Origin: Candidatus Latescibacterota bacterium
GTDB taxonomy: Bacteria > Krumholzibacteriota > Krumholzibacteriia > WVZY01
NCBI GenBank assembly: GCA_963791045.1
Contig: CAWBQK010000016.1
Location: 1-20,834 of the forward strand
DNA length: 20,834 bases
Reading direction: 5' to 3'
Shown: positions 1 through 20,834 of the stretch, piece after piece
Position numbering within the stretch: position 1 is the stretch's first letter
How the letters are laid out: the number at the start of each line of letters is the position of its first letter
The notes under the pieces: model-generated
Database searches by the model: none
What the model was told of the DNA's origin: nothing
The model's input: the letters and a program-made list of their open reading frames with translations, nothing else
Program-made: the position numbers and the translations under genes

Positions 1-1
1 T

Positions 2-916: not shown

Positions 917-959
917 CCTGTTTGATGGGCGCAAGAGGTGCCCGGCGAGAGGTGGAATC

Positions 960-995
960 GAGAAAGGGAAGCCGTCGAGGTTTCCCTTTCTCTTT
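960..995. terminator. Probable bidirectional intrinsic terminator between convergent genes
   Basis: Stem GAGAAAGGGAAGCC, loop GTCGA, stem GGTTTCCCTTTCTC, then TTT. It lies between the OmpA-like stop (916) and the mazG stop (1032). Confidence 0.75.
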
Positions 996-1031
996 GAATG
1001 CCGTGTTGTCGAGATGGACTAAAAAACTCAT

Positions 1032-1829
1032 TTACGTTTTTTTTATTCGCTCCCAGTAAACGTCCATTTCTTCAAGGGTCATATCTGCGAGCGAGCGTCC
1101 GTCACTTCGTATCAGTTCCTCCATCGCCGAGTAACGATCGACAAACTTGGCGTTGGCGCGTGTGAGAGCGGCCTCACCGTCAATATTCATAAAACGACTC
1201 AGGTTTATCACCGAAAAGAAAAGATCGCCGATTTCTTCTTCGATACCGGTCTCGTCGTCATCGTTCTTGGCGTCGTTTCCGATGAGCTCCTCGACCTCAA
1301 TCAGCTCCTCCCGGATCTTATCAAAAATCCCGGTTGTATCGTCCCAGTCAAAACCAGTCCGGGCGGCTCGTTTCTGGATCTTCTCGGCGCGCCGAATGGG
1401 TGGAAGGTTGCCGGGGACGTCGTCAAAAAGAGTTTGGCCGGCTGGTTTGTTTTTCTTCTCCGCGGCTTTGATCCTGTCCCAATGGGCGAGACTCTCGGTG
1501 GTATTGTTTGCGACGGCGTCGTCGAATACATGGGGATGACGGCGTTTGATTTTTTCGTGTGCCTGCCCCGCGATCCTCTCGATAGTGAATGACGGGTCCT
1601 TCTCTTGGATGAGCGCAATCGCAAAAGTGAGGACGAAGAGGACGTCGCCGGTTTCCTCGAATACTTCCTCGGAGTCACCACGGGCCCGGGCCCACTGGAG
1701 TTCGTACGCCTCGTCGATTAGATCCGAGAGGATGTTCTCGACGGTCTGCGCCTGGTCCCACGGGCAGCCATCGTCGCTTCTTAGTATGCGTATGAGCTCG
1801 AACAGGCGTTGAATCGGTGTGTCTTCCAT
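1032..1829 (-). CDS. mazG: Nucleoside triphosphate pyrophosphohydrolase MazG (265 aa)
   Basis: Motifs LRSDDGCPWDQAQT, EETGDVLF, KIKRRHPHVF, KIQKRAARTGFDW and EEEIGDLFFSVINLSR. Start placed at ATG 1829 (MEDTP); the longer ORF-track version overlaps uvrA. Confidence 0.95.
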   Translation of the reverse strand: MEDTPIQRLFELIRILRSDDGCPWDQAQTVENILSDLIDEAYELQWARARGDSEEVFEETGDVLFVLTFAIALIQEKDPSFTIERIAGQAHEKIKRRHPHVFDDAVANNTTESLAHWDRIKAAEKKNKPAGQTLFDDVPGNLPPIRRAEKIQKRAARTGFDWDDTTGIFDKIREELIEVEELIGNDAKNDDDETGIEEEIGDLFFSVINLSRFMNIDGEAALTRANAKFVDRYSAMEELIRSDGRSLADMTLEEMDVYWERIKKT

Positions 1830-1946
1830 CCGTCGAGGATACGTCCGGCCGATACACGTGACAAGCCCCGATTTGGAACTTGATGGAAGTGGGTCAAACC
1901 CGATACACTTATCGGATACCTTTTTGAGAGGGACAGTACTGATTTC

Positions 1947-4712: not shown

Positions 4713-5686
4713 AAATCTGTGTAACCGGCGGGGCAGGCTATATAGGATCCGTGGTCGCCCAGGCGCTCATCGATGAAGGACAGGACGTCACGATCATCGA
4801 CAATCTGTCTTCCGGACACAGATCCGCGATTCCCAAGGGAAGCAGGTTTGTTGAAGGCGATATCCGCGATCACGAAATCCTCGACCGCGCACTTGGAGAC
4901 GGAGTTCGCGCGGTGCTTCATTTTGCCGCGCTCAGTATCGTTCCGGAGTCGGTCAAGGAACCGCTTCGGTATTTCAACAATAACATCGGCGGTACGGTTC
5001 ATCTTCTCGAGGGCATGCAGAAACATGGTGTGAAACAAATCGTGTTTTCCTCGAGTGCGGCGGTCTATGGCGATCCTGATTCGCTCCCGATCGAGGAAAC
5101 GGCGCCATGCAAACCGCTCAATCCATACGGTTTTTCGAAACTTGCCGTGGAAAACATCCTCGATGCGTGCAATATCGCGTGGGGGCTGAAATACTCGTCG
5201 TTGAGATACTTCAACGCCGGAGGTAGCACGGAGCTTCACGGCGAACATCACAACCCCGAGACACATTTGATCCCGGTCGTGCTCGATCTGGTGTCGGGGA
5301 AGCGGAAGGATTTCACCATCTTCGGCGATGATTACGATACGCCCGACGGCACATGTATCCGCGATTATATCCACGTCCACGATCTTGCCGCCGCGCACAT
5401 TCTGGCGCTCGACGCGATGGACAAAGGTTTCTCGGGTATCCTCAACCTCGGAAGCGAAGATCCGTTCACTGTCCTCGATGTTGTAAAAACCGCGGAACGC
5501 GTGACGGGCAAATCGATCGAGTACGGAATCGGGCCGCGCCGCCCCGGAGATCCCCCCGGACTTCTGGCTTCCTCCAAAAAGGCCGAGGCCGTCCTTGGCT
5601 GGAAGAAATCAAGGAGTTCTCTGGAGGATATTATCCGCTCCGCGTACGAGTGGCGGTTGGCAAACCCGGATGGATATCCTTCCTGA
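4709..5686 (+). CDS. galE: UDP-glucose 4-epimerase
   Basis: TGGAGYIGS, HFAALSIVPES, FSSSAAVYG, YGFSK (YxxxK), LRYFN, DGTCIRDYIHV. The start overlaps the uvrA stop (ATGA). Confidence 0.96.
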   Translation: MKICVTGGAGYIGSVVAQALIDEGQDVTIIDNLSSGHRSAIPKGSRFVEGDIRDHEILDRALGDGVRAVLHFAALSIVPESVKEPLRYFNNNIGGTVHLLEGMQKHGVKQIVFSSSAAVYGDPDSLPIEETAPCKPLNPYGFSKLAVENILDACNIAWGLKYSSLRYFNAGGSTELHGEHHNPETHLIPVVLDLVSGKRKDFTIFGDDYDTPDGTCIRDYIHVHDLAAAHILALDAMDKGFSGILNLGSEDPFTVLDVVKTAERVTGKSIEYGIGPRRPGDPPGLLASSKKAEAVLGWKKSRSSLEDIIRSAYEWRLANPDGYPS

Positions 5687-5757
5687 TTACCCCCGGCCGC
5701 CGACAGTGGCATGGGCAACTCATTTGCCTGAAATCCCGAGCCGAATAACCGCTGTGG

Positions 5758-5772
5758 TGGCACGGAGATTGC
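5758..5772 (+). promoter_or_regulatory. sigma54 (RpoN) -24/-12 promoter
   Basis: TGGCACG-GAGA-TTGC matches the TGGCACG-N4-TTGC consensus exactly and lies about 60 bp upstream of the ATG at 5835. Confidence 0.75.
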
Positions 5773-5834
5773 CCCTATCCCCATATTCGGAACCTGTTGA
5801 CATCTAAACCTTTAGAGGTATAGGGATATAGCGT

Positions 5835-7718
5835 ATGAGGACCACTGGGGCCACCGTCTCGGAGCTTGCATTTATATTCAAACTTCTTCCGCTTTTGCAA
5901 GAAGTCGATACCATCGACAGACTTTACAGGCTCTTGCTGGCCATCGTGACTTCGGGTCGGCAGTTCGGCTACGAACGAGCGATGTTGCTTGTTCCCGATG
6001 AGGGCTCCGGTGTGTTGAGGGGACGGTACGGGGTCGAGCGAACCGTGGAATTTTCCGGCAGGCCCGGTTTTGACGACATGGCCCGGTCGGTGTTCAAGAA
6101 TTTCGAACAGGTGGATGCCACCGACCTCACGGTAAAAGTGCGTTCGTATTCGGTTCCGCTGAACTGGCACCGGAGCGCGCTGGTCAAAGCGGCGAGAACA
6201 ACCTATCCGGTACTCGCGGAACGCGGAGCGAGTGAGTTCGCGACCGATACCTTTTTTGGTTTCTTCGGTGTTAAGAGTTACCTGGCCGTCCCCGTAGAGG
6301 TGGACCACAAGGTCGCGGCCATCCTTGCCGTGGATCGATCGTCGTTCAAGAAACGAGACTCGGTCGATGAGATATCGGTTCTCTACAGCCTTGTCCAACA
6401 GACCGCAATGGCGGCGGAACGCCTCCTTGATTCATCGGCAAACAAACGAAAAACTCGGGTGTTGACCAAACTTCACGAATCGCTGAACCGCGCATCGACC
6501 GACTCCGAATTTGAGGAGGGACTCAAGGCGATACTTGCGATGGTATGCAACACGGTGAATACCAGCGTCTGTCTTCTCAAGGATTACACGTCACAAAAAA
6601 CCTACAAGGCCGTGACAACACGGCCGCTTTTTGAAAACTCCGATGACGACGGATCGGTCGTCGCGGAGGGCTTCGAGGAAATTCTGGCGTTATCGGCCGG
6701 AACCAGAGAGGTGATAAGCGGGGACGGGGTGTGCGGCCACTTGAAGGGGCGTGCGGCCGACGAGATCGCGTTCTTCCACGCGACCCCGTTGGGTGTCGGC
6801 AAAGACGTTCTTGGCGCCCTTGGTGTATATACTGTGACCGCGGACAACCCGGGCAAGCACGATGACCTGCGGCCGGGAGACAAGAGTTTTCTCGATCTCT
6901 GCGCCAGGGTCCTGGCCTCGACCATCGAGAAACGGCAGAAACATGACCGCGTTCACCGTGTCGAGGAATTCCTTCAGGAAATGAGTTCTAATCTTGTTCG
7001 TGAACGCGAACGGTCGCGTATCGGCGATCAAAGCGTCGAGTATCTCGCCAAAGTCCGGGAAGACTTAAAACATCTCCACGAGATAGTCACCAGCGAGAAA
7101 GCGGTAGCCGCGCGGCTTCTCGAAATTACCGGACAGGTGAAGAAAATGCGGCGTTACAACAGCGATTTTGAAGACTCGGTGTTGAACGACAAGACCGCTT
7201 ATGTAATGACCGACCTTTACAAACTGACAAAAAGGGTTGTAAAGAAATGGCAGACGGCTGCGGCACAAAAGGGTATCGACATTACCGTGCGTATCCCCGA
7301 CAGCGGCCCGTCGCTACTGCTCGACAAGAAAAACGTTACCACGGCGCTGTCCAATATTCTTCGCGCGACGTCTTCGTTTCTTAAAGAAGGGGACAAGATG
7401 TTAGTGGAGTGTTCGGAAACGGAAGACCGTGTCCTCGTGTGCGTGGCCGACAACGGGGCCGGTTTGCCCGGTGATACGATCTCGAGGTTGTTTATGCCGT
7501 TTGGTGACACGGATCCTGAAAGCGATGACAAACGCGCGTTGTCGCTGGCTGGGGACGTTCTCCAAAAACATGCCGCCGAGATCATGATCAAGTCGTCCTA
7601 CAGTTGGAAGACCATTCTCGTCCTCAGTTTTCCCGTGGCGGCAAGCCGAGATCGACGGGCGACAAAAAAGGACCGGCGCCGTCGCACCGACCGGAGAGAG
7701 AAAACGCCTGAAGAGTAA
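5835..7718 (+). CDS. GAF-domain protein with a degenerate histidine-kinase (HATPase-like) C-terminus; probable pseudokinase
   Basis: Two GAF-like segments (RAMLLVPDE...YLAVPVEV...AAILAVDR and HATPLGVGKDVLGALGVY). G1 box VADNGAGL and F box LFMPF are present, but there is no recognisable H box or G2 box. Confidence 0.75.
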   Translation: MRTTGATVSELAFIFKLLPLLQEVDTIDRLYRLLLAIVTSGRQFGYERAMLLVPDEGSGVLRGRYGVERTVEFSGRPGFDDMARSVFKNFEQVDATDLTVKVRSYSVPLNWHRSALVKAARTTYPVLAERGASEFATDTFFGFFGVKSYLAVPVEVDHKVAAILAVDRSSFKKRDSVDEISVLYSLVQQTAMAAERLLDSSANKRKTRVLTKLHESLNRASTDSEFEEGLKAILAMVCNTVNTSVCLLKDYTSQKTYKAVTTRPLFENSDDDGSVVAEGFEEILALSAGTREVISGDGVCGHLKGRAADEIAFFHATPLGVGKDVLGALGVYTVTADNPGKHDDLRPGDKSFLDLCARVLASTIEKRQKHDRVHRVEEFLQEMSSNLVRERERSRIGDQSVEYLAKVREDLKHLHEIVTSEKAVAARLLEITGQVKKMRRYNSDFEDSVLNDKTAYVMTDLYKLTKRVVKKWQTAAAQKGIDITVRIPDSGPSLLLDKKNVTTALSNILRATSSFLKEGDKMLVECSETEDRVLVCVADNGAGLPGDTISRLFMPFGDTDPESDDKRALSLAGDVLQKHAAEIMIKSSYSWKTILVLSFPVAASRDRRATKKDRRRRTDRREKTPEE

Positions 7719-7900
7719 TTTCCGCTGTGTGACCCCTGGCGGTTCCCGGCGGAGCCACTGGGCCGCCCAGGTGCCCCTGGTTGGAATCTGACCACCCTGC
7801 CCTTGGAATCCCGCCGTCTCCTCGATAGCCTGTTGTTGAGAAGAACCTCTTAATGAATTGTAATCATGTCGGTTAGGCGATTGTTTATCTGCTCTGACTC

Positions 7901-7915
7901 TGGCACGCCGTTTGC
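7901..7915 (+). promoter_or_regulatory. sigma54 (RpoN) -24/-12 promoter
   Basis: TGGCACG-CCGT-TTGC is a perfect consensus, about 90 bp upstream of ATG 8004. An AT-rich IHF-like TAATGAATTGTAA lies at 7851-7863. Confidence 0.8.
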
Positions 7916-8003
7916 CCGTAATGGGTGAATTCACAAACATTTCTCCCCCGGCACCGGCGGGGACGGGCGTCTTGCCGCGACCCGACGGTGGGGGAACCGC
8001 AAC

Positions 8004-9518
8004 ATGAACAGATTCAGCAAACATTTCCAGACGACGTTCGAACAGATCAGGGATCCGCTCCTAATCGTGGACCTCACGGGGAACATACGTGGAGCGAACC
8101 CCTCGGCGCAGGCGGTCCTGGATCTTGGCCAGAACGATCATCTACGCGATGTGGTGTCACTCGAGCGTAGTTTTGTCTTCGACGTAGAACTTCTGCTGTC
8201 ATTGATCTCCCAGGACACGCCGGTGGTCGGGCACCGCTTGAAGGATTCCGAGGGTAACGAGGCGGATGTCGTGGTCGATGTGCTGGACATGCCCGGCAAA
8301 AAAGGCCGCTCTCAAACCAAACTCATTCACATCAAAGATTTCTCGCCATTTCAGAATTACGAGCGTTGGAAGGACGAATTGATCTCGATGGTTGCTCACG
8401 AGATCAAGAACCCTCTTTCCGCCATGAAAAATTCGATGGGTATTCTTATTTCCCAAGCGAATGATGGGATGTCGGACGGACAGATAAACCTGCTCAAAGT
8501 GTCGACGAGAAGTATCGATCGCTTGACACGGCTTCTGGACAACTTTCTCGATGTGTCCCGGTTGAGCTCCGGTCAGTATGTCCCGGATCCTGATTGGGAG
8601 GATGCGAGGGGGTTTACATCGGAAGTCATAAGCACTTTCAAAACTCTCTTCAATGTTCGCCGGCAGCGGCTGAACTTCAGTGTGTCCGGGGCCCTTGGGA
8701 AAATATATGTCGACGGACCAAAGCTCGAACAAATACTCATAAACCTTCTGAATAACGCGATCAAATTTACACAGGATGACGGCGAGATCTCGGTATCGCT
8801 CGAGCCGGCAAGTCTTGAGGCGCTAAGCGATGACCTGAGGATCCTCCCGTGGAGCGAACTTGCGGATCTCAAATTCGTTCGCGTAACCGTGAAAGACACG
8901 GGCATTGGGATGACCGAGAAAACGATCGCCCACCTGTTTACCCGTCACTACGGGCAAGACGAGCGAACCGTTTCGAAGGGATCTCATCTCGGGCTTAGCA
9001 TATCGAAAGCCCTTGTAGAGGTTCAAAACGGCAGTCTTGAGTTCGAAAGCCAACTGGGTGTCGGAACCGAAGTCTCCGTCACGCTGCCCGCGGATGAGAT
9101 CACGTTCACGATACTCAACAGGGTCAAGTCGATCGATCGAGTATTGAGCCGTATGACGAGTCTTCGCAGGGAGCCGACATTCCTCGCCGTCCGCAAGGAT
9201 ACGCCGCGGGAATGGGAAAACTTGCTCGTCGGAAAGACGTCTGCCCCCGTCGTCAATCCGACATTCCAACAGGAACAGAACGGTGATGTTTTCATGTGGA
9301 CGCTTGGCGAAAGGCTAGCCGTGTCGCTGATCGCAGAAAGCGCCGATCAGACGGCAAATGACGGTGATTCGCGCCGGGTGGAAAACAAAACGGTTCCTCA
9401 TGATGGATACGCCGTCGTGGGCCAGCGGTTGTCGTCGGGGGACAGCCGCGTGAACAGAATCATGGGAATTGCATTGACGCACTTGAAACAAGACAAAGAG
9501 TTGACACGGGCGATCTGA
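8004..9518 (+). CDS. PAS-domain sensor histidine kinase (cytoplasmic)
   Basis: N-terminal PAS-like region (DPLLIVDLTGNIRGANPSA). H box VAHEIKNPLS, N box QILINLLNNAIKFT, G1 VKDTGIGM, G2 GSHLGLSISK. Confidence 0.92.
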   Translation: MNRFSKHFQTTFEQIRDPLLIVDLTGNIRGANPSAQAVLDLGQNDHLRDVVSLERSFVFDVELLLSLISQDTPVVGHRLKDSEGNEADVVVDVLDMPGKKGRSQTKLIHIKDFSPFQNYERWKDELISMVAHEIKNPLSAMKNSMGILISQANDGMSDGQINLLKVSTRSIDRLTRLLDNFLDVSRLSSGQYVPDPDWEDARGFTSEVISTFKTLFNVRRQRLNFSVSGALGKIYVDGPKLEQILINLLNNAIKFTQDDGEISVSLEPASLEALSDDLRILPWSELADLKFVRVTVKDTGIGMTEKTIAHLFTRHYGQDERTVSKGSHLGLSISKALVEVQNGSLEFESQLGVGTEVSVTLPADEITFTILNRVKSIDRVLSRMTSLRREPTFLAVRKDTPREWENLLVGKTSAPVVNPTFQQEQNGDVFMWTLGERLAVSLIAESADQTANDGDSRRVENKTVPHDGYAVVGQRLSSGDSRVNRIMGIALTHLKQDKELTRAI

Positions 9519-9585
9519 AAAAGAAACAAGCCCGTTGTTTTGGCAGACAGGCAGATAAACCCCAGACTGATCCAGGAGAGTGATA

Positions 9586-9999
9586 ATGGAACGCTTAAGA
9601 GTCCTTCTGGTGGACGATGAACAAGACATCGTGGATACGGTGAAATACAGCCTCGAACTTCGGGGTTACGATGTCGATGTCGCCTTCGATGGTCCCAGCG
9701 CCTTGACCCGGGCGCGCCAGGGCTCATACGATGCGATGATTCTCGATGTGATGCTGCCGGGGAAGAACGGTTACGAGGTCTCGCGGCTTCTCAAAGAAGA
9801 TATGGAGAACAAGACACTCGACCCGTTCGGTATCATCCTTTTTACAGCCAGAAAACTCGATAGCGAGTTCAGGGAGGAATTCGTGTCGACGTGGTCAAAA
9901 GCCGATGGTTGTATTTACAAGCCATTCGACATGGAAGTGTTGCTCGAAAAGATTGCGGAGATCGTCGATTCGGAGAAATCCGAACTCGTCGAATCTTGA
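9586..9999 (+). CDS. Single-domain response regulator (receiver)
   Basis: VLLVDDE, phospho-acceptor in ILDVMLP, FTAR and YKPFD. GGAG RBS at 9575-9578 supports the ATG at 9586. Confidence 0.92.
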   Translation: MERLRVLLVDDEQDIVDTVKYSLELRGYDVDVAFDGPSALTRARQGSYDAMILDVMLPGKNGYEVSRLLKEDMENKTLDPFGIILFTARKLDSEFREEFVSTWSKADGCIYKPFDMEVLLEKIAEIVDSEKSELVES

Positions 10000-10048
10000 T
10001 AACTCCCGCCTGGTTTGAAAAGTGTGTGACGGGTGTTCCTGCAAAGAG

Positions 10049-10086
10049 GCGAAAGGCCCTTCCTTAGTTTCGGAAGGGCCTTTCGC
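10049..10086. terminator. Hairpin, probable terminator between convergent genes
   Basis: Perfect 15-bp stem GCGAAAGGCCCTTCC / GGAAGGGCCTTTCGC with an 8-nt loop. Confidence 0.7.
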
Positions 10087-10171
10087 ACACGCGCAGTGTG
10101 GTTCAAAAGGGGGGTATGGTGGAAACACTATCCGCGAGCGGCAGCGCGGAAGGTGCTACGTATATGCGATA

Positions 10172-13100
10172 TCAACGTACGATCACCATCTTTTTTGTCA
10201 CTGCGGCATTCTTTGCTCTGATCTGATAGAAATAAACTCCGCTCGGCAAGACCTGGCCGTTCAGATCTCTTCCTGCGAAGGGGAATCGATTCCATCCCGG
10301 GGTCGCGCCGGACACCCTCTCGGTGTAGACACGCCGTCCCGCAACATCATAGATATTTATTTCGACATCGGACGCCGATGGGAGACCCACATCGAGATAG
10401 GTATTGTGCTTGAACGGGTTGGGTGAATTCTGCCGGACGGTGAGGGCCCGGATGCTCGGTGTTGTTTCAATCCCCACAATAGTGGCGAAGAACGTCCCGA
10501 GGATATTCATGTCGCCCGTCACAATAACCGTATCGGGAGTGGCGTCGCTTTCGAAATCATCCGACCATCCATAGAAGTAGTAACCCGAGTCGGGTTCCGC
10601 GGAGATCACGATCGTGTCGCCGTATAGATAGCTCGTTTCAATTGGCGTCATCTCAACCGTTCCGTTTCCGACTGCCAGCAGGGTCACCGTGAAAGCATCC
10701 TGTGTGAAGGTTGCCGTGACGGTCGTGTCGCTTTGGATTACGATCTTCGCCGGGTTGGTCTTTCCGGTCAGGCCGTCAGACCATTCGCCGAACTTCCACC
10801 CAGGATCAGGAATCGCTTCAAACGAAATGGTGTCACCGTCGGCGTAGAATTCCATGTCGGGATCGACCGTAATGGATCCGTTTCCGTTGACGGTTGTCGT
10901 GATCTGATAGAGTGCCTGCGCGAAATTAGCCGTTATCGTGATGTCACTAATCATGATCAACGTGTCGGGGTTTTGCGTCCCGCTTAGCCCTTCCGACCAC
11001 GCCATAAATACATAACCCGAGTCTGGAACCGCCGTGACCACGACGGTGTCCCCGAGTCCGTAGGTGAACTGATCGGGCGAGAGTTCGATCGAACCGCTGC
11101 CGAGTACATTCCGTGTGATTGAGTACTCGGGAATAATGAAGTTGGCGGTAATCGTCGAGTCGCTTTGCATCGCGATCGTGACCGGGTTCGTCGTCGAGGT
11201 GATTCCGCCGGTCCAGCCGGTGAAGGCCCAGCCCGGATCTGGTTCAGCGGTCAGTTCGACCAGCGCGCTGTCGGAGTACGCCGCATAATCCGGGATACGG
11301 GTCACGGCGCCGTTGCCCGTCACGTTCGTCGTCAAAACGTGGAGCGGGAACGATGCCAGCGGCGCGATGTCCACGTTTCCGAATGTCACGTCGGACATGT
11401 GACCGATGAGCACAACGGAACCGTCGTACGGTGCGAAATCATCCGCGAGCAGCCATTCGGTGGGTTCTGTCGTGCCCTCTTGCCAGAATTTGACTCCTAC
11501 GCGGCTCAAGCCCTCTCCAATCGTCTCGGAGCGCATCTTGAGGATATATTTCACGTCGGCCGACACGCTGAGGAATACTTCGCCGCGGCTGACCTCGTCG
11601 TCCTTGAGCTCAAAAACCGGGTCATCGGGGAAGTTCCGCAGCCACCCGATCGCCTGGTAACGGTTTTCCAGCCTGGGTTGGACGAGGACCGGACCGTCGA
11701 TACCGCCTCCGACGTGTCCGCGCCATCCAATAGCGATGCCGAAACCGGTATTGCCACCCAGATTGCCCGCGTGAATCGTCATAGGTACCGTGACCTCATA
11801 GTCGGTCATCCACGTGCGGTCACCCATAACAACGAAGCGGTCGTACCCGGTCCCGGCGGGATCGGTTCGAAGGCCGTCGGGAGTGAGGATCCAGCGGCCG
11901 TCACCCACATTTGCCACATCGGCGATCTCTGTGGCCGCCGACCAATCCGCAACGTACGGCATTTCCCAAGTGATTCCCGCCGTATAGTTGATCGTCACCA
12001 TTTTCTCGGTTTGTTCTCCGAGTGTGTCGATTGCCGTAATCACGAGAGCGTTGGCGCCCACGATAAGTTCTTCGTAATCGATTTCTACATTGTAGTCGCC
12101 GTAACTAACGAGTCGCTGACCGTCCGGACCCATATTCAGAGCGTAGCTTGGGCCGCCGTTCAGCGTGTAAGACAATGAGGCGATCGCGTCGGTGTCCCAC
12201 ACGTGACCGAGAATGTTCGCCCAACGCTGAGGCACGCCAAGTTGCCCGAAATTCTGTGTGTCCCCGTACCAGACTTCGACAACGGGTGGCGTCTCGGCGG
12301 ACGGATTTCCGCCGTCCTCGGGAACGATGGGTTCAAGGGCGTTGAAGAAGTAGTCCACGTTACCCGTGAACATTGGTGTCTCCCAATAATTCGCGCCGCC
12401 ACCGGTGTTGCTGAAAAACACACCGATCTTGGTCACGACCATTAATTGGTCGAAATCGGTAAATCGGGTCCAAACTTCGTCATCAAACGAGGAGCGGAGT
12501 TCGAAATTGTCACCGGTTCGGACAACACGCAAGAATCCGGGTGCGTCCGCGACACTGATGAGCCTTATTGTCGTCAGGACGCCCGCGTCAAAGTATCCGG
12601 CGAAAATTTGGGGGCCGGTGGAGGTATAGATGATTTCGAAACGGATGTACGTGTCCAGGTCTTCCTCTACAATGATCCCCTGTCCCTGGTAGGTCGCGAT
12701 TCCGCGTGAATCAAATTTTACCTCGACCTCGAAGTCGGTATCCGGCGCAACCTGCATCAAACGCGGCGCGAGATTGCCCGCCGCGGAGAGATTGTGTTTG
12801 ATTCCACCGGGGATGTTCACCGTGGCGTTGGTCCCGGACATTGTGAGCGTCGCATCGCCGAGTGGATCGACAAACTCCCATATGCTCGTGTCCAGCGTCG
12901 GTCCGTAGAAATCATCCGACGCGATGCCGGGGACGAATGTGGCCGTCACGCTGGTGTCGGCCAACATCATGATTGTGTCGGGGTTCATCCTGCCCGTGAG
13001 CCCATCGGACCATCCAAGGAACGCGTGGCCGGGGTCCGGGTCAGCCGTCAATACTACGTACGTGCTGTCGGCATGGAGCGTAAAGTCTGGATCCAGAGTG

Positions 13101-14800
13101 ATCGAGCCGTTTCCGACGACGCTCGTTGATATTTCGTGAACGACGGTTGGGACTTGTACGACCGACACGTCGCCAAAGGTCACATTGGCGTAGTCGGCGA
13201 CGAGCACTATCGAGCCATCATGTCTGTCGAAATCATAGGTCAGATCCCACGTGCCTGGTTCGAGTGTTCCGTCTTCCCAGAATTTCACGTCGACTTTGGC
13301 GAGACCGCCTCCGATCGATTGTGATCGAACTTTGAGGTTATAGGGCACGTTTGGAAGGACGGTGACGGGCATCTGCGCGCGGGTATCGTCATTGTCCTTC
13401 ATTATAAGAGTGGGGCTCGTGGGGAAATTCTCGATTCGTGCAAGCATCTGATACGGTTTCTGCAGGGCGGGACTGGTTGGGCCCTCGTGGCCCTGCCAAC
13501 CAACAATAACTCCGACACCGAGTACGCCGCCGAGATCGCCCTCGTGGATGGTCATCGGCACGGTGACCTCGTAGTCCGGTGTCCAGGTCATGTCTCCGAG
13601 AACGAGGTAGCGGTCATACCCGGTCGCGCTCGAATCGGTGGTCACACCCTGGCCGCTGAGATTCCAGCGTCCGTCTATCACCTGGGCGACATCGGGGATG
13701 GCGGTGGCCGTCGTGAAGGTCGCGTCGTAGGGAAGCGCCCACGTTACTCCGTCGGTATAATTAATCGTGACGGGATGGTCGGTTTGCTCGCCGAGCGTAT
13801 CGATGGCTGTGATGACAACACTATTCGCGCCGGAGGTCAGGTCCGCGTGATCGATTTCAATGTTGTAGTCACCGGTCTGGATAAGCCGGAAGCCGTCGGG
13901 CCCCTGGGGGAGAGCCGTGCTCGCGCCGCCGTTCAGCGTGTACGAGAGTGTGGCGATGTCATCGGTGTCCCAGACGGTCCCGAGAACGTTTATCGACCGT
14001 TGCGGGTTGCCGAGCTGGCCGAAGTTCTGGGTATCGCCGTACCAGACATCGACGACGGGGTACGTCGGAGCCGAAGGGTCTCCGTTGTCTTCCGGAACGA
14101 TCGGACTTGCTGTATTAAAGAAGTAATCGAGATCTGCGACGAATGGTGGTGTATTGTACTCGTCGGAAAGGGTGTTGCCGACGAATGGTCCGACTTCAGT
14201 GACGACCATCCCTCGCGTGAACGTGCCGGCGGAGGTCCATGCCGATCCGTCGTACGAGTACAAGAACTCCCATAATGTCCCGCTCCGGTTGACCTTGAGA
14301 TACGCCGGGATTCCGCCGGGGAGCGCCGCATTGATTTTGATCGAAGCCGGGTTGATCCCGTTTATGAAGCCGGCGAAAATCCTTGCGTTCGTCCCGTCGT
14401 GGCTGACGTCAAACCGAAGATATGTGTCCGCGTCTTCGTGTACGACAATGCCCTGGAACTGGTAGCGTGCCGATGGTCTCGAATCGTATTTTGCCTCGAC
14501 CTCGAAATTGGCGTCCGCAATTGTTTGCAGCAGCCGGGGCGCGCAGTTGCACGATTCCCAAAGGTTGTGTGAGACCCCGCCTGGAACGCGGATCAACAGG
14601 TTGGTGCCGCTCATTAGAAGCGTGGCGTCACCGACCGGATCCGAAAATGTCCACACCGGATCGAGTGATGTCGAGTAGAAATCGTCGGACTGGACGGCCT
14701 GTGCGTGGGCGTCCGACGGTGTGACGGATTTAGAGATAAACAGAAAAGCAGCGAGACTCGAGATCGCGAGCCAACGGTGCCATTGATTACCCCTGGACAT
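10172..14800 (-). CDS. Large secreted protein (1542 aa): two ~590-aa lectin/ConA-like + Ig-like modules, InlB B-repeat/Flg_new-type repeats, C-terminal FlgD-Ig/T9SS-like domain
   Basis: GGAGG RBS precedes ATG 14800, followed by a signal peptide (AHA-Q). Duplicated modules start at DDFY (14686 and 12916). Repeats have the form GNGxxxxxP...LTAxPDxGxxFxGWS. The C-terminus reads QNSPNPF...IYDVAGRRV...GRDLNGQVLPSGVYFY...KKMVIVR. Confidence 0.85.
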   Translation of the reverse strand: MSRGNQWHRWLAISSLAAFLFISKSVTPSDAHAQAVQSDDFYSTSLDPVWTFSDPVGDATLLMSGTNLLIRVPGGVSHNLWESCNCAPRLLQTIADANFEVEAKYDSRPSARYQFQGIVVHEDADTYLRFDVSHDGTNARIFAGFINGINPASIKINAALPGGIPAYLKVNRSGTLWEFLYSYDGSAWTSAGTFTRGMVVTEVGPFVGNTLSDEYNTPPFVADLDYFFNTASPIVPEDNGDPSAPTYPVVDVWYGDTQNFGQLGNPQRSINVLGTVWDTDDIATLSYTLNGGASTALPQGPDGFRLIQTGDYNIEIDHADLTSGANSVVITAIDTLGEQTDHPVTINYTDGVTWALPYDATFTTATAIPDVAQVIDGRWNLSGQGVTTDSSATGYDRYLVLGDMTWTPDYEVTVPMTIHEGDLGGVLGVGVIVGWQGHEGPTSPALQKPYQMLARIENFPTSPTLIMKDNDDTRAQMPVTVLPNVPYNLKVRSQSIGGGLAKVDVKFWEDGTLEPGTWDLTYDFDRHDGSIVLVADYANVTFGDVSVVQVPTVVHEISTSVVGNGSITLDPDFTLHADSTYVVLTADPDPGHAFLGWSDGLTGRMNPDTIMMLADTSVTATFVPGIASDDFYGPTLDTSIWEFVDPLGDATLTMSGTNATVNIPGGIKHNLSAAGNLAPRLMQVAPDTDFEVEVKFDSRGIATYQGQGIIVEEDLDTYIRFEIIYTSTGPQIFAGYFDAGVLTTIRLISVADAPGFLRVVRTGDNFELRSSFDDEVWTRFTDFDQLMVVTKIGVFFSNTGGGANYWETPMFTGNVDYFFNALEPIVPEDGGNPSAETPPVVEVWYGDTQNFGQLGVPQRWANILGHVWDTDAIASLSYTLNGGPSYALNMGPDGQRLVSYGDYNVEIDYEELIVGANALVITAIDTLGEQTEKMVTINYTAGITWEMPYVADWSAATEIADVANVGDGRWILTPDGLRTDPAGTGYDRFVVMGDRTWMTDYEVTVPMTIHAGNLGGNTGFGIAIGWRGHVGGGIDGPVLVQPRLENRYQAIGWLRNFPDDPVFELKDDEVSRGEVFLSVSADVKYILKMRSETIGEGLSRVGVKFWQEGTTEPTEWLLADDFAPYDGSVVLIGHMSDVTFGNVDIAPLASFPLHVLTTNVTGNGAVTRIPDYAAYSDSALVELTAEPDPGWAFTGWTGGITSTTNPVTIAMQSDSTITANFIIPEYSITRNVLGSGSIELSPDQFTYGLGDTVVVTAVPDSGYVFMAWSEGLSGTQNPDTLIMISDITITANFAQALYQITTTVNGNGSITVDPDMEFYADGDTISFEAIPDPGWKFGEWSDGLTGKTNPAKIVIQSDTTVTATFTQDAFTVTLLAVGNGTVEMTPIETSYLYGDTIVISAEPDSGYYFYGWSDDFESDATPDTVIVTGDMNILGTFFATIVGIETTPSIRALTVRQNSPNPFKHNTYLDVGLPSASDVEINIYDVAGRRVYTERVSGATPGWNRFPFAGRDLNGQVLPSGVYFYQIRAKNAAVTKKMVIVR

Positions 14801-15239
14801 TATGTGTGACCTCCGAAGTGTTAGTATTCGAGCCCGGGTGCAAACAGAATGCACCCTGCCGTTAGCTGACAATTGCAGGATCGAGACCGTTCGGGGGGGT
14901 ATTTTATCTTTGGCCGTATTTTAACTTATGTTGTCACAGTCGTTTACAGGCGCGCCTAATTCAACTCTACCAGAGAACGTGCGCTTTGTCGGACGCGTGG
15001 GCACATCACCCAAAGGTGCGGTTTGAGGGCGGAATTAGTGCGCGAACACACCCGTGAGGGGGGGCTTTGCGGTCTGTGGCGGAGAAATCGAACTCGCTGT
15101 TCCCGGTCGCGTATCGTTGCGCCTTTTGGCGGTCAATTCGTAACGCCGCCGTCGCGCAGAGGGAATCGCGCCTGATATCGCGGGGAATATATCCAACCCG
15201 CCGGCCTGGAGGGAGGGTCCCCCGCACAAAAGTCGGGCG

Positions 15240-15268
15240 TTGACAAATGGGGGATCGAATGGCAATAT
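15240..15268 (+). promoter_or_regulatory. sigma70-type promoter of the tRNA-Phe locus
   Basis: TTGACA, 17-bp spacer, then CAATAT with an extended -10 TG, about 90 bp upstream of the tRNA start. Confidence 0.55.
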
Positions 15269-15356
15269 ATTCGGGCCTGGCGGAAAAGAATTCACACTGG
15301 TCGCGGTCAGGGGCTTTGGGTGCGGGATGATGGGGCAGGACCGCGTGGCCATTGGT

Positions 15357-15397
15357 GCGAAGGTAGCTCAGTCGGTAGAGCAACGGATTGAAAATCC
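15357..15397 (+). tRNA. 5' half of tRNA-Phe(GAA), truncated after the anticodon loop (integration junction)
   Basis: GCGAAGG-TA-GCTC-AGTCGGTA-GAGC-A-ACGGA-TTGAAAA-TCC gives the acceptor 5' strand, D arm and anticodon arm with GAA. No variable loop, T arm or 3' acceptor strand follows. Confidence 0.85.
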
Positions 15398-15607
15398 AAT
15401 AAGTCCGTTTTTTTTGCCCACGTCCCAACCTCAAGTAACACACCTAATTCGTTGATCCCAAATTGATTATCTGCTCTGGAGTCGTTTGTTCGGCTTTGTG
15501 TCTTCATGCGTGGTTTTGCGGAAGTTTAGGGTCACCTATATGGACACAACCGATTCTGGTGACGAGTGGGCACATCACGGAATCGTGAAGCGACGAGAAA
15601 TTTCCTC

Positions 15608-15635
15608 TTGACAAAACCAAGTCTCAAGCTAGACT
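15608..15635 (+). promoter_or_regulatory. sigma70-type promoter, possibly for a leaderless transcript
   Basis: TTGACA, 16-bp spacer, TAGACT, with an ATG 7 nt downstream (15643) and no Shine-Dalgarno sequence. Confidence 0.5.
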
Positions 15636-15642
15636 AGCGACT

Positions 15643-16266
15643 ATGAGTAGTACCACTGAATGGAATGAAGTCCTTCGCAGGTTTGATGACTTGTTGGAAC
15701 GAGTTCGGTTGATGGCGACTAGAACTGTGTTCCGAGATTTCGAGAGTCAAAGATGAAGACTAATCGTGAACCTGGCTAGAACGTGGGATTCTCCGACCAG
15801 ATATGATTCGGAACCCGCCGGTCCATGGTACGCGTCGGTTGTATTCATAGGCGAAATTGCATTCAGATCGGTGTCGTCATCGCCTTCAGTCAACACGGTA
15901 TGCCGATGGCGACGGGAAGAGGCATTGGATCATTGGACCGGGCGGCTTTTACGATTGTTACACGAAAAAGGGTTTCGTTTTGGCATTAACTGCAGATCCG
16001 ATCCTTGACTGGTTTTTGATGAAGAACACCCGGTAACCTGAGCTCGAGATGGGGGCTTACGGGACATACAGCTTTTGGTGTATGACAAAACGAAAAACAT
16101 GGGCGAGCAACTTGAAAAGGTGTGGGGGATCGACGGGAAAAAAAGTGCGATTGAGAAGCGACCAGAAAAAGCAATGAAGGGCTGGAGCGTTAAAGTATGG
16201 GCTCCCGAACGATATGGCGTGACCACCGGTCATCACGCTGATCAGATGTGAACAAGTTTACGATAA
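15643..16266 (+). pseudogene. Interrupted hypothetical gene (begins MSSTTEWNEVLRRFDDLLERV)
   Basis: Promoter-linked ATG and coding-like sequence interrupted by TGA stops. No family recognised and the extent is uncertain. Confidence 0.3.
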
Positions 16267-16382
16267 GGTTCGGATTCGGCGTCTTTTCAGGGATGGTCAA
16301 CGGAGGCTTTCGACCCGAAATTGTCGCGGTGAGCGCATTTTTTTGGGATAGATAAGATCTATAAAGATAGACATGAGGTCTT

Positions 16383-16562
16383 ATGAATAGGCGATATTTG
16401 AACATCAAAGAGGCGTCAACCTATACGGGATATACGGCAGGGCACAATATACCAATTCGTATCGAACGCTTGATCCCCGTCATAAAGAAACGGGGGAGAC
16501 TTCGATTCGACATCCGAGAGCTCGACGAGTGGATGGCAACGAGACCGACAAGATGTTGTTGA
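16383..16562 (+). CDS. Excisionase-like HTH DNA-binding protein (HTH_17/Xis-like), 59 aa
   Basis: GAGG RBS, then MNRRYLNIKEASTYTGY...LIPVIKKRGRLRFDIRELDEWM. The middle reads TIYQFVS in a shifted frame, suggesting a compensating +1/-1 indel pair. Too short for the ORF track. Confidence 0.8.
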   Translation: MNRRYLNIKEASTYTGYTAGHNIPIRIERLIPVIKKRGRLRFDIRELDEWMATRPTRCC

Positions 16563-16597
16563 TGACACCCACATCTGGCCCTAACTCTGGGGAGCTT

Positions 16598-17860
16598 ATG
16601 GATCACGAATCAGATCAATCGATCAAGCGAGACCCGATCAAAGAACTCCAAGAGGAGGCTATTTGTTGGGCCCCACTGCGGAGCGCCGGAAAACTCGAAG
16701 TGTTGAACGACGCCATAGCTCAGTCCGCATGTGAGGCGCTCGTGGAACTCTCCGACGGGGGAAGGGAAGACAATTCTCAAGTTTGAAGTGGTATCCGGTC
16801 TGTCTAGGCCCGGAAAGAGTATCGCAAGCGAGTGAGAGACCTGGAAACGAAAGCGCCGAGACTCAGAGTCCGCTGACCTTTCCCTGCATATTGCCGACTA
16901 CCATGCCGAACTCACGCGGCTGTGCGAAGCGGGAGACACCGATGGCTATCTCGAAACCCTCCGTTCGTTTAAACCAACATCGAAATCATCTCGCCATTCA
17001 GCCGTACACACGCGCCAATTACGAAGTAGATACCCGGTCTCGTTGGAGAGGGTCTTTGCACTGGGTTTGCCGAGCTAGACATCGTACGTATCAATCCACC
17101 CCGAGTCGCTAACGATAATCGGCGCTCGCACGTCACACGGGAAAACGGCTCTCCTCGTCAACATCATGTGCCAACATGATCGACCCAGTACACGGAGAAG
17201 TCGTTTGCGTTTGTCTCGTATGAGCACAGCCAAGACTACAAGCGTGTACGTCCGAATGTTACAACGTGAGAGCGGGGGTGACCTCGAACGCTTTTCAAAA
17301 CGCGAGAGAGATACATCGGTACATCCGTGAAGGCATGAGAGCGACAACAGCGACCTGGAACGCGCCCGGGCCAAACTCGAGGAGCTTGGGAAAGACCGAA
17401 CGCCTCTACATAATAGACAAACCACACGCGGTCGAGGAGCTTGTCGGATGTCATCCGCGACTTGAAAACACAAGGCGTGGCTGCGGTCTTTGTGGACTAC
17501 ATCCAGCCAGATTCCCAGCGACCAAGTCTCTCCCCACGCGCCAGGCGACCATTCAATTCATCAGCGACCAACTCAAGAACGCCGCGAAGAGGTACCACGT
17601 CCCGATCATCGCCGCGTCGCAACTAAACCGGGAAGGCGGGAGACGATCCGCGTCTTGAGAATTTCAGGGAGAGCGATGACCAAACATCCGACGCGCACAC
17701 GGTCTTGTCGTTGGTCAATACCTCGATGACCGGTGATGAGGACGGAGACACCGCAACGCTCAAGATCAAGATTCTCAAAAACAGAGACGGCCAGGTGGGA
17801 CGGACGATCTTGCTTGGACTTCGAGCAACCGACACAACGCATTGTCACTGGGAGCGCAAC
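16598..17860 (+). pseudogene. DnaB-like SF4 replicative helicase (Pgp1-like), multiply frameshifted as sequenced
   Basis: Motifs appear in order across frames: GLCTGFAELD (17051), LTIIGARTSHGKT Walker A (17121), FAFVSYE, VFVDYIQ Walker B (17486), PIIAASQLNR (17601), KILKNRDG (17768). GGAG RBS precedes ATG 16598. The ends are approximate. Confidence 0.85.
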
Positions 17861-17871
17861 AGTGGGTGCGT

Positions 17872-18994
17872 GGTGATAACAAAAACAAACGTAAGGACGG
17901 CACATCGTCATTGAGTGGAATCCACACACCGATCCCGCGCCGGACATTGGTGGGCTTCTCAATGATCCGAGCATAGACAGGGAGAACATCGTCGTGGAGT
18001 TTAGCGGAAACAGGCGGGCGTATCACTTGCCAGCGGTCATTGACACGCGGCACAGGGCACCGATTCATCTTGAGGAGCAGAAGTTTCCCAAAGACCCATC
18101 GCGGTCGTTCTTCGGTGACCTGTCGCCCGGGGAACATAGTGGTGTTCGAGTCGTGGGGATCGATTACACGCCAGGACTTTGTCGAACGGTGAACGCGTTA
18201 CAGCTTCTGTTGGCCTCTCCCGATTGCCGAGCCAACATCCTCGACGAATGTTATCTCACGACGGACAACGTCTATCGGTATACAGGTGTCGTGCCGGGTT
18301 TGTCTTTTACGCCGTCCGCGTGGTTTAGGGCGTGGGGTGTTCGGGAGCATGTCGGGCCCGACGGCAAGAGGCGGTTTCAGGGATGGGAACGCGGCAAGGC
18401 GCTCGAGGCGTTACACGATTGGCCAACATGCCCTTTTATCTTTTGTACCGAAAGACGGCCACGGTTGACGGCAGGCGGAAGACGTTCACGGTCAAAACAC
18501 TCGAGCACATCATAAAGCTCTCCGAAGTGTTCGACGGGGAACTCACGGACCGCGACATCGTTTCCCTCAGTGGTTCCACTCACGACACTGTGTCGCCCGT
18601 CCTCATTGGCGTGCAGCTCAAACCGATTTGGGTGGACGGCATCGATAACTACTTCGTCTTAAAACCCCCGAGATACTTGAGCGAGATCCGCGAACACGCG
18701 AAGGGCTCCAAATTTCCGTATGGATTCATCGAACGACTTCTCATCGAGACAGCCAAGCGCCACCGAAAAGACAAGGGGCTCGTGATGGTTTCTAAGCCAC
18801 TCACGTTGGCGTCAGAGCTACGCATGGACGGGTGGATTCGGAAACGCCAGTGGAAGCGGATTCAGGACACGCTTGACTGGTGTGGAGAGATCGCCCAGGA
18901 GCTTGGTTACGTCGAACGGATTTCCACGCGCACCCGAGGTGGGGAACTGCGGTACGAGATCATCTTGAACCCGAGGAAGGTGACGGGTGACTAA
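17872..18994 (+). CDS. Homologue of Chlamydia plasmid protein Pgp2 (pGP2-D; putative replication initiator), frameshift near 18420
   Basis: Joining ORFs 17994-18515 and 18332-18994 gives colinear motifs matching recalled Pgp2: RAPIHLEEQKF, VVGID, ALQLLL, ALEALHDLANMPF, PIWVDGIDNYFVLKP, SKFPYGFIE, LASELRM..RQWKRI..CGEIAQELG. The start is uncertain (frame open from about 17895). Confidence 0.8.
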
Positions 18995-18996
18995 GG

Positions 18997-19048
18997 GGAC
19001 GCCACTGTTGGTAGCAAAGTACGCCACTATTGGTAGCAAGCGGTGCCA
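18997..19048 (+). repeat. Tandem 22-bp direct repeats (2 full + 1 partial), putative iterons/origin
   Basis: GGACGCCACTGTTGGTAGCAAA (18997-19018) and GTACGCCACTATTGGTAGCAAG (19019-19040), plus an in-register GCCA at 19045. The array begins 2 bp after the Pgp2-like stop. Confidence 0.75.
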
Positions 19049-19577
19049 GAACTCGCAACACCGCAAAGAGTTACAAGGCCAAATTTCGCTTAGGTATTCT
19101 TTAGGAATACAGAAAGAGACGACGGCTCTCGCTATGCGTCGCCGTCTATTTGAGGCGGTAAACGCACCAAACCACGCCATATGTCAACATCTCGACACCC
19201 GCCTGGCAGCGACAAAGCTGTCTAACCCGTTACCACGCACAATAATGGCCCGCCGTTGCCGCCCTAAGCCCTTGTCAATTCGTACCTTAGAAAACCAAAA
19301 GAGCCTGTTTTTGATTGTGGATTGTATGCGGAATAGCGGAAGGAATTACGGCGCTTGCAGTTATACGATCAGCGGACTAATTGCGAGAAAGTTGAACGGA
19401 CTTAACCTATTGTCACATAAAGAAATAACCCCCCTAGTTAACATAATGGGGATTAGACGCCACGCCAACGAGAGAGGGGATTATCCGGTATACCGCACGG
19501 GGAAGGGCTCCTACCAACGATTTACCGCCGGAATTCTCACACATCGCCCGTTGCGTGTCAAGCGTGGAAGCGCTCGA

Positions 19578-20015
19578 TCACTTGTTGCCGTCGTACTTGC
19601 CTTTCACACCGCCCCAGGTGTTTTCCTGTGCCGGTACCGTGCCGCCTGGCCCCCACCGACCACAACTTACCCACTCCGGCGGTTGCGTGTCATCCCTGAG
19701 CATCCACGCGTATCCGTCTTGGGTGATTATCGAACCGTGAGACCAGAACTTGATGTTGGACACGGGAGCGGGAAGCTCGTTTGGAATCGAAAATCTTTCC
19801 TCGGCTGGTACCCACTTGGGATTGAACGTGCCGTCAGGATCTTTAAGCTCAATGACCCATGTCCGTCCAAATTCATCGAGTGCCAAGTAACCACCACCCG
19901 CGATGATTCCAGGTCCCGGGAACACTCCGGTTGCCTCGCTTGCGGGCATGGTCCACTGCGTCACGACGATTCCTACGAGTACACCAATCGTGATGTAGAG
20001 CAATCGATTCTTCAC
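19578..20015 (-). CDS. Small secreted protein with C-terminal TWGxxK motif
   Basis: GGAGG RBS and GTG start, N-terminal signal/TM segment (MKNRLLYITIGVLVGIVV), C-terminus VPAQENTWGGVKGKYDGNK. Confidence 0.8.
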   Translation of the reverse strand: MKNRLLYITIGVLVGIVVTQWTMPASEATGVFPGPGIIAGGGYLALDEFGRTWVIELKDPDGTFNPKWVPAEERFSIPNELPAPVSNIKFWSHGSIITQDGYAWMLRDDTQPPEWVSCGRWGPGGTVPAQENTWGGVKGKYDGNK

Positions 20016-20030
20016 GTTAGTCGCCCTCCG

Positions 20031-20349
20031 TTATTTGTCGCCGTCGTACTTGCCCTTGATGTTACCCCACGTTTCCGGGGCCACGGGAACCTGGCCCATT
20101 TCGCCGGTCCAGAAGTTGCCGAGGTAGGTTGCCGGTTGGGTGTAGGGAGAGGTCAAATTAGACCGTTGATTAAAATACGCATCGCCGGTGTCAGTAATAA
20201 CATATTCCGTATCCGACCAGGTGGCGTATCCGGGCAATCGAACTCCCCACTTGCGCCTGTACAGTTCGCCTCCTCGAGATGAAACCCGATCATCGCAGAC
20301 ACCATCAGACAAAGCACTCCAATCCAGAGCACACTAATCGTTTCGCCAT
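20031..20349 (-). CDS. Small secreted protein with C-terminal TWGxxK motif (two apparent frameshifts)
   Basis: GGAGG RBS at 20356-20360 and ATG at 20349 (MAKRL). The hydrophobic VLWIGVLCLMVSAMIGF is in one frame and the body ending VPVAPETWGNIKGKYDGDK is in another. Confidence 0.65.
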
Positions 20350-20427
20350 GAGTCACCTCCGTTGTTAAGGGAATGCCCCATTGTAGCACAGCGGAGGGTC
20401 CTACATGACTACTACTAGGAGGTATGA

Positions 20428-20834
20428 ATGGATTCATCCAACCCCGTTGCCACGAAGGACGCAGGCGGTCGACCACCGTCACACGGTCTCTACCAGTACC
20501 TTTCCCTCAACACCGACCACTGGCCCGAGGAGATGCGGAACACCTACACCGCACGGTACACGCAGCTAATGAACCTCGAGCATGTGGACCAGGAGCTAGA
20601 TGCGGGCCTTGTGTCGCAAGTCTCACGTTACGAGGTGTTGTTGGATCAGGTGTGGGGTTTTCTCGCTGAGAATGGCCTGTTTGACGCCAATGGGAACCAT
20701 CACGCGATACTCAACATGTTAGGCCATTACGAAAACTCACTCACTCGGATGTACGACAAGCTAGGACTCACACCCGAGAGCCGAAAGCGACTGGTGTGGC
20801 TAAGAAGAAAAAAGGATTGTGGAGTCACTGGAGC
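20428..20834 (+). CDS. Phage terminase small subunit, P27 family; 3'-truncated by the window edge
   Basis: AGGAGGT RBS and ATG at 20428. Translation: MDSSNPVATKDAGGRPP...YEVLLDQVWGFLAENGLFDANGNHHAIL...LTRMYDKLGLTPESRKRL. LGLTPxSRxRL is the P27 TerS signature. Absent from the ORF track because there is no stop in the window. Confidence 0.75.
   Translation, partial: MDSSNPVATKDAGGRPPSHGLYQYLSLNTDHWPEEMRNTYTARYTQLMNLEHVDQELDAGLVSQVSRYEVLLDQVWGFLAENGLFDANGNHHAILNMLGHYENSLTRMYDKLGLTPESRKRLVWLRRKKDCGVTG

Follow-up and report, generated by a model that had tools for sequence, protein, structure and literature searches.

The DNA stretch analysed here, referred to as the window, is the entire 20,834-bp contig CAWBQK010000016.1 (C16) of assembly GCA_963791045.1 from a Candidatus Latescibacterota bacterium, which comprises 21 contigs and 3.66 Mb with a completeness of 80.9% and a contamination of 5.8%. 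Bases 1–15,356 are host DNA with long, intact open reading frames (ORFs). They are followed by the 5′ part of a tRNA-Phe gene and, from there to the contig end, by an element that carries a replication module of the kind found on chlamydial plasmids together with a probable gene for a phage small terminase (terS) (Table 1). C16 ends at 20834 inside the terS-like ORF, so that the end of the window is also the end of the contig. A preliminary description of the sequence had listed an att junction, a hypothetical gene, an xis-like helix-turn-helix (HTH) gene, a helicase, a Pgp2-like gene, iterons, two reverse-strand genes and terS. All of these parts were found in the order described, and all lie on the plus strand except for the two reverse-strand genes.

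Table 1: Features of the element and of its left junction on contig C16.
Feature	Position	Strand	Evidence and remarks
Displaced 5′ part of tRNA-Phe(GAA)	15357..15397	+	5′ strand of acceptor, D arm, anticodon loop and 3 nt of the 3′ anticodon stem strand; Rfam tRNA model 27.1 bits, below the cut-off of 29
23-bp att core	15375..15397	+	100% identical to C7:64-86, flanking bases differ on both sides; element starts at 15398
Junction hairpin followed by T8	15383..15416	+	Host anticodon-stem strand pairs with first element bases in computed fold
Promoter-like site	15608-15635	+	10/12 consensus positions; site count in scan not above shuffles
Three small hypothetical ORFs	15643-15756, 15766-16008, 16075-16251	+	No Pfam or PHROG match
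HTH_17 (Xis/AlpA-type) DNA-binding gene, weak match	16383..16562	+	HTH_17 21.1 bits, below the cut-off of 27
DnaB-type replicative helicase without primase domain	16529..17880	+	DnaB_C 30.1 bits; 11-13 frame changes
Pgp2-family replication initiator gene	17994..18994	+	tblastn, frameshift-aware alignment; one frameshift near 18420
Two 22-bp iterons, likely origin	18998..19039	+	19 nt each, 95% alike; period 22, 1.9 copies
145-aa ORF, orphan	19578..20015	-	Hydrophobic N-terminus; ORF list; no family match
Paralogue of the 145-aa ORF	20031..20350 (ORF 20031-20312)	-	N-terminal hydrophobic segment in other frame, read from ORF list
P27-type small terminase, probable	20428..20834	+	Runs off contig; frame change near 20791; Terminase_4, TIGR01558 and PHROG 83 matches

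An Element inside tRNA-Phe

Bases 15357–15397 of C16 correspond to positions 1–41 of tRNA-Phe, and the tRNA sequence is left directly behind 15397. The missing 3′ part opens another contig of the assembly (C7), on which bases 64–86 repeat the 23-bp core, covering the D arm to the anticodon stem, and bases 87–121 complete the tRNA through CCA. Direct repeats of a tRNA segment (23 bp; C16 15375–15397 and C7 64–86) are therefore present at both ends of the element, of whose right end just the 63 bases before the core were assembled on C7. Since two halves of tRNA-Phe were found at an identical 23-bp core, the element sits inside the tRNA-Phe gene, between C16:15398 and C7:63, with reciprocal junctions on the two contigs. 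The att junction of the preliminary description was thus confirmed, and the attR that it had proposed to look for was located on C7; what it had not spotted is that the tRNA gene is represented by one half only, that genes of the element carry frameshifts and that contig and window end together.

No tRNA-Phe gene other than the interrupted one was found in the assembly. ARAGORN called 46 tRNAs, none of them tRNA-Phe and with all other amino acids covered, and called no tRNA on the window. When joined, the two halves (C16 and C7:87–121) equalled the intact tRNA-Phe of relatives of the same family in eight of the 11 loci examined, the other three giving tRNA-Arg once and nothing twice, and the relatives mostly showed one full tRNA-Phe match each. 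The left-flank gene (9580–9999) adjoins tRNA-Phe in five of nine relatives' loci; the right flank was matched in none of the nine. No empty site was found in the assembly, which breaks on both sides of the element.

On C7, the 23 bases preceding the core are a degenerate copy of the 5′ part of the tRNA, and normal tRNA-Phe is restored at neither junction. As the insertion disrupts the only tRNA-Phe found, an essential and single-copy gene, it should be recent. Temperate phages and islands that integrate into tRNA genes reportedly fall into sublocation classes, said to have been laid out by Williams in 2002. Like these elements, the one described here has end repeats that are a piece of the tRNA gene, including the anticodon loop. 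In contrast to them, its block of identity stops short of both tRNA ends, and the element supplies a degenerate 5′ part rather than an exact 3′ part, leaving no normal tRNA. Insertion into the only tRNA-Phe gene without restoring it is unusual. The hairpin predicted at the left junction may be terminator-like, as judged from its computed fold; a terminator scan did not list it.

Partial 3′ copies of tRNA-Phe were also observed in three relatives, 2.7–4 kb from a full or second copy (G205:C197 15380–18213, G207:C69 128112–130897 and G199:C102 9288–13467). These copies point to repeated use of tRNA-Phe as an integration site in this family, there of the usual 3′-duplicating type. In six relatives' loci, no tRNA-like att sites were detected at E ≤ 0.1.

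The Replication Module

The ORFs 17994–18515 and 18332–18994 are two frames of one Pgp2-like gene. Searching the window by tblastn with pGP2-D of C. muridarum yielded E values of 3.7e-15 for the N-terminal and 2e-18 for the C-terminal half, and a frameshift-aware alignment covered Pgp2 residues 11–333 of 353 with 103 of 327 positions identical (~30%). The frame changes a single time, at 18417–18420, and was placed there by all five queries. In PLSDB, all 116 records matched by the C-terminal half were plasmids of Chlamydia, Chlamydiifrater or Chlamydophila. Neither Pfam nor NCBIfam contained a model recognising Pgp2. Passages of PMC11895440 describe Pgp2 as a replication initiator with a π/RepE-like fold and an essential hairpin, and the region of that hairpin aligned with the window gene free of gaps. 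The same passages call the hairpin unique to Pgp2 among initiators; its length and part of its sequence are kept in non-chlamydial members (alignment A1; window 18330–18400).

The structure of the C-terminal half was predicted with a pLDDT of 80. When its winged helix was compared with iteron-binding initiators, π (Z 8.3) and RepE (Z 8.1) ranked second and third and RepA reached Z 7.3, whereas the unrelated winged helix of the JetABC kleisin came first with Z 9.3, so that the fold match alone is not specific. Foldseek found no match to this model in the PDB at E ≤ 0.001. In the predicted model, the C-terminal winged helix aligns with the iteron-binding domain of π (R6K), RepE (F) and RepA (pPS10), from which the window initiator differs by the lack of sequence similarity (8–13% identity).

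Directly upstream of the Pgp2-like gene lies the helicase gene, a piece of which exceeded the DnaB_C cut-off of 27 bits. Its tblastn matches are spread over all three frames. Frameshift-aware alignment to the helicase domains of two environmental relatives, L039 and L027, gave 124 of 315 and 120 of 300 identical positions (~40%), with 13 and 11 frame changes, respectively. These fall within 16917–17873, and surplus bases account for 11 of the 13 (L039 query) and 8 of the 11 (L027 query). The corrected path contains no in-frame stop and keeps all helicase motifs.

The iterons start 4 nt past the stop codon of the Pgp2-like gene. Their unit shares 14 of 22 positions with the chlamydial one, a value reached in 9 of 2,000 shuffles; its agreement with the 13 other units was no better than chance. 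Judged from the sequence, a Pgp2-type plasmid replicon in the element is strongly supported, because an array of the 22-bp type occupies the same place in 18 of 21 loci of relatives. The chlamydial-plasmid-like replication module proposed previously was thereby borne out, with Pgp2 homology along nearly the whole protein, an adjoining helicase and 22-bp iterons.

Relatives of the Replicon

An exhaustive profile-free search for homologues of the Pgp2-like product returned 130 cluster representatives at E ≤ 0.001, 55 of them at E ≤ 1e-10; apart from the product itself, the closest was at most 45% identical to it. No Pfam family was found in the 22 representatives scanned, and none of the 207 other genomes of the host's phylum carried a Pgp2-like gene. 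Pattern scans detected at least five loci in three metagenome-assembled genomes, two of them Sericytochromatia, and at least 16 metagenome loci, these counts being lower bounds. Two of the metagenome sequences, L030 (1–9825) and L039 (1–9761), have terminal overlaps of 123 bp and therefore represent circles of ~9.7 kb. In the environmental loci, a fusion of DnaG primase and DnaB helicase occurs along with ParA, the Pgp2-like gene and a tyrosine recombinase. The initiators of L030 and L039 are ~38% and 33% identical to chlamydial Pgp2 and are accompanied by 22-bp iterons; the hosts of these circles may be environmental chlamydiae. Compared with the environmental loci, chlamydial proteins showed identities of 33–39% for Pgp2, 31–34% for Pgp5 and 29–31% for the Pgp1 helicase domain, and Pgp3, Pgp4, Pgp6, Pgp7 and Pgp8 gave no match at E ≤ 1e-3.

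At the 18 loci, the arrays repeat every 22 bp, or every 23 bp in a single case, and lie at most 700 nt downstream of the Pgp2-like gene. One of the remaining three loci had no room for an array, one had none, and one contained an AT-rich 21-mer only. In 11 of 13 comparisons, chlamydial and environmental units agreed at 13–18 of their 22 positions. The chlamydial iteron (L007 7436–7501) and the environmental units (L009–L012, L027–L040) have a common GGTCTACC...GTTGC pattern, and the environmental arrays stand directly behind the rep gene in an orientation opposite to that of the chlamydial array. An 80-kb Sericytochromatia contig contains 37 repeats of a 24-bp unit with the iteron motif GGTCTACCC (L009 10686–11568). 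They start ~150 bases past 10539, the end of the ordinary 22-bp array.

The window element shares with the chlamydial plasmid (e.g., pMoPn of C. muridarum) a helicase gene followed by a Pgp2-family gene in the same orientation, full-length Pgp2 homology and the iteron period of 22 bp. It differs in its initiator, which is ~30% identical, in a helicase only weakly like Pgp1 (27%) and in the position of the iterons, which on the chlamydial plasmid lie ~2.9 kb from the rep gene and in the window directly behind it, in two copies. Moreover, the window element is integrated into a chromosome, beside a terS-like gene, and ParA, Pgp3, Pgp4 and Pgp6 are absent from its visible part. With the ~9.7-kb circles and the Sericytochromatia relatives it has in common a Pgp2-family gene with 22-bp iterons directly downstream, a helicase domain ~40% identical to theirs and, in the case of the L008 module, an HTH_17 gene. 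These environmental plasmids depart from the window element by a DnaG-type primase fused to their helicase, by ~250 additional residues at the N-terminus of their initiator and by the presence of ParA and a tyrosine recombinase; a terS-like gene was not seen in them.

In the portions of PMC11895440 (2025) drawn on here, the function of Pgp2 is assigned and the protein is described as having no sequence relatives, and PMC7846284, in an excerpt, treats the donor of the chlamydial plasmid as unknown. A full-text literature search, with supplements outside its scope, found no paper on non-chlamydial relatives of Pgp2. In the literature found, the family of Pgp2 with 22-bp iterons is described from chlamydial plasmids only; it is now seen in a tRNA-integrated element.

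The terS-Like Gene and the Type of Element

The ORF starting at 20428 matched Terminase_4 with 23.2 bits (cut-off 24.7) over profile positions 13–92 of 98, TIGR01558 with 23.2 bits (cut-off 45.6) and PHROG 83 with an E value of 0.006. Three libraries thus indicate a small terminase (E 5e-5 to 6e-3) and no other family. P0131, its one close relative with 72% identity, which is named small terminase by its source, scored 21.5 bits and is equally borderline. All seven weak tblastn matches of P0131 lie at bases 274–860 of phage genomes, three of them annotated as small terminase; a metagenome scan with P0131 found none. With all family scores short of their curated cut-offs, the terS call is only probable: the ORF at the place given in the preliminary description probably encodes a P27-type small terminase, as the three libraries indicate, with no profile match at the strength that the cut-offs demand. 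Packaging of the element in virions, for which this one ORF speaks, is accordingly only plausible.

Satellites of the PICI and cf-PICI type have an AlpA-type HTH regulator, a replication gene, an origin, accessory genes and a small terminase within ~5 kb of att. The element shows the same gene order over this distance and differs in having no integrase at its visible left end and in carrying a replicon of another type. Its continuation was sought in the bin by blastn and tblastx, which returned just C16 itself. The element is integrated and probably phage-related; prophage, satellite and integrated plasmid are not separable on the visible 5.4 kb. The preliminary description had suggested an undescribed satellite or phage-plasmid family. 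A phage-plasmid is not favoured, given that the DNA is inserted into the chromosome and that its 5.4 kb show no partition gene, none of the 15 ORFs scanned giving a ParA-type match.

Other Genes of the Element and Its Setting

The xis-like HTH gene was found where it had been placed, albeit with a weak match. The HTH_17 match spans profile positions 1–50 of 51, and PHROG 66 (excisionase) gave an E value of 0.0078. The sequence can be read as containing two compensating indels near 16443–16470, which possibly occurred in this gene; frameshift alignment did not confirm them, an unrelated stretch having been aligned to the HTH_17 protein of L008.

For the 145-aa reverse-strand ORF, no relative besides itself was found in 5.8 billion clusters, and the Atlas gave unnamed clusters alone. 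It resembles the neighbouring reverse-strand ORF with 44% identity over 43 aa in tblastx and with 27 of 81 aligned positions identical. A sigma-70-like site on the minus strand (19533–19561; 10 of 12 positions, TG-extended) lies just below the 145-aa ORF and points to the iterons. Transcription across the origin region could start there.

Within the host part of C16, a secreted protein of 1,566 aa (10172–14872) carries a type IX secretion sorting domain and an internal duplication; because of this protein, the host is not a chlamydia. The gene is placed between the syntenic flank gene and tRNA-Phe and was matched in just one of nine relatives' loci. A complete 16S gene lies midway in a 230-kb contig of the assembly, and this placement suggests long reads as the assembly source.

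The first 9 kb of contig C15 of the assembly (G000, 1–9000; L043) have a GC content of 35–43%, compared to 56% beyond, and few long ORFs; they are either an island of foreign origin or the chimeric start of a contig. Tyrosine recombinase genes lie at or run off the ends of two contigs (G000:C21 3–1025 and G000:C3 107332–107493), the copy on C3 with an internal TAG, and these ends are probably junctions of other unassembled elements. The recombinase at the end of C21 was considered as the element's own integrase and rejected, as it abuts ordinary host genes.

Discussion

We consider it somewhat better than an even chance that 15398–20834 is the left arm of a mobile element which recombined at the 23-bp core inside tRNA-Phe, replicates by a Pgp2-type initiator and iterons, carries a probable terS and owes its frameshifts mainly to consensus error. 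From the junctions, homologies and repeat array observed, we infer how excision, initiator binding, helicase loading and packaging might proceed. An unseen tyrosine recombinase, with the aid of the HTH_17 protein, would excise the element, and the excised circle would replicate like an iteron plasmid. The Pgp2-family initiator would bind the 22-bp repeats that directly follow its gene and load the DnaB-type helicase of the element. Packaging might then be performed by the element's own large terminase in the case of a prophage, or by that of a helper phage in the case of a satellite, with the probable P27-type small terminase.

A number of results weigh against this interpretation. The window has 1.9 iteron copies, compared to 2.7 to 8.3, mostly at least three, in the 18 relatives' loci, and after 14 comparisons the match between the window and chlamydial units is marginal. 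In a profile scan, the 5.4 kb next to the left junction showed no integrase, and in the bin, which is 81% complete, there was no match to TerL_ATPase, Terminase_6N, portal or HK97 capsid. The virome matches proposed as a check did not materialise: IMG/VR contained no relative of the Pgp2-like piece, of terS, of the family alignment or of the first 38 bases of the element. A phage collection likewise gave neither a DNA match nor a protein match to the Pgp2-like piece, and the fold model of terS is poor (pLDDT 59) and not usable for a structure search. The further points on this side, namely the distribution of the frameshifts, the hybrid tRNA and the low terS scores, bear directly on the alternatives.

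As the helicase and rep genes are frameshifted, the assembled copy could not work as written. The same element may be a cryptic, decaying remnant with real frameshifts, unable to replicate or move, with tRNA-Phe supplied by the hybrid at the right junction or by an unassembled second copy; we regard this as possible and clearly the lesser probability. The frame changes, at least 13 in number, are confined to the element (11–13 in the helicase, one in the Pgp2-like gene and one in the terS-like ORF), their density differs greatly between neighbouring genes, unlike uniform read noise, and they are not located in homopolymers. The host 15 kb of C16 and the end of C21 contain long, intact ORFs, which fits decay as well as local consensus error, and the few iterons left would likewise agree with decay. 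On C7, the hybrid tRNA (41–121) has a cloverleaf-like predicted fold and scores 37.3 bits with the Rfam model (41–118; cut-off 29), so that it could perhaps work, which would allow an old insertion, and a second tRNA-Phe could be missing from the incomplete bin. However, ARAGORN rejects the hybrid, whose acceptor contains two mismatches and whose D-loop is extended by a 13-nt insert, the mostly single full tRNA-Phe matches of the relatives speak against a second copy, and a fixed single-copy remnant gives no cause for assembly breaks on both sides. The 11–13 frame changes in ~0.9 kb go along with 40% identity to distant helicases, kept motifs and no in-frame stop, which argues for consensus error. 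The expected recency of the insertion and the assembly breaks point the same way. A genome scan of stop-free-frame coverage did not flag the element, owing to a spurious 431-aa frame, and is no gauge of local quality. On balance, we regard decay as slightly less likely than an inaccurate consensus of an insertion that is badly supported and probably polymorphic.

That the element is an integrated plasmid or another non-phage island, with terS a false positive and nothing packaged, appears unlikely. The terS scores below all cut-offs, the lack of any viral contig with a relative and the nature of the nearest replicon relatives, circular plasmids of small size that have a tyrosine recombinase but lack phage genes, would agree with this, whereas three independent libraries and tblastn indicate a small terminase and no other family, over most of the Terminase_4 profile. 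Even less credit, in our view, is due to an assembly chimera in which a free episome and the chromosome were fused through a 23-bp tRNA-like stretch common to both. The position of the element at contig ends, the contamination of the bin and the abrupt GC change at the start of C15 are compatible with such an artefact, but both reciprocal junctions were found on separate contigs with exactly the same 23-bp core, and the assembly holds no empty site.

The same initiator and iteron period, and in part the same iteron sequence, thus occur in the chromosome of a non-chlamydial bacterium as well as in small plasmids from the environment. Tentatively, and with considerable doubt, we propose that Pgp2 and 22-bp iterons are the backbone of a widespread environmental plasmid lineage, a candidate donor of the ancestral chlamydial plasmid, and that this backbone was here captured by a temperate phage or satellite which inserted in the middle of the single tRNA-Phe gene and replaced its 5′ part with an imperfect copy. 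If the link to terS is real, the Pgp2-type replicon moves between plasmids and phage-like integrative elements. The non-chlamydial relatives represent harmless systems for studying this replicon and a lead on its origin.

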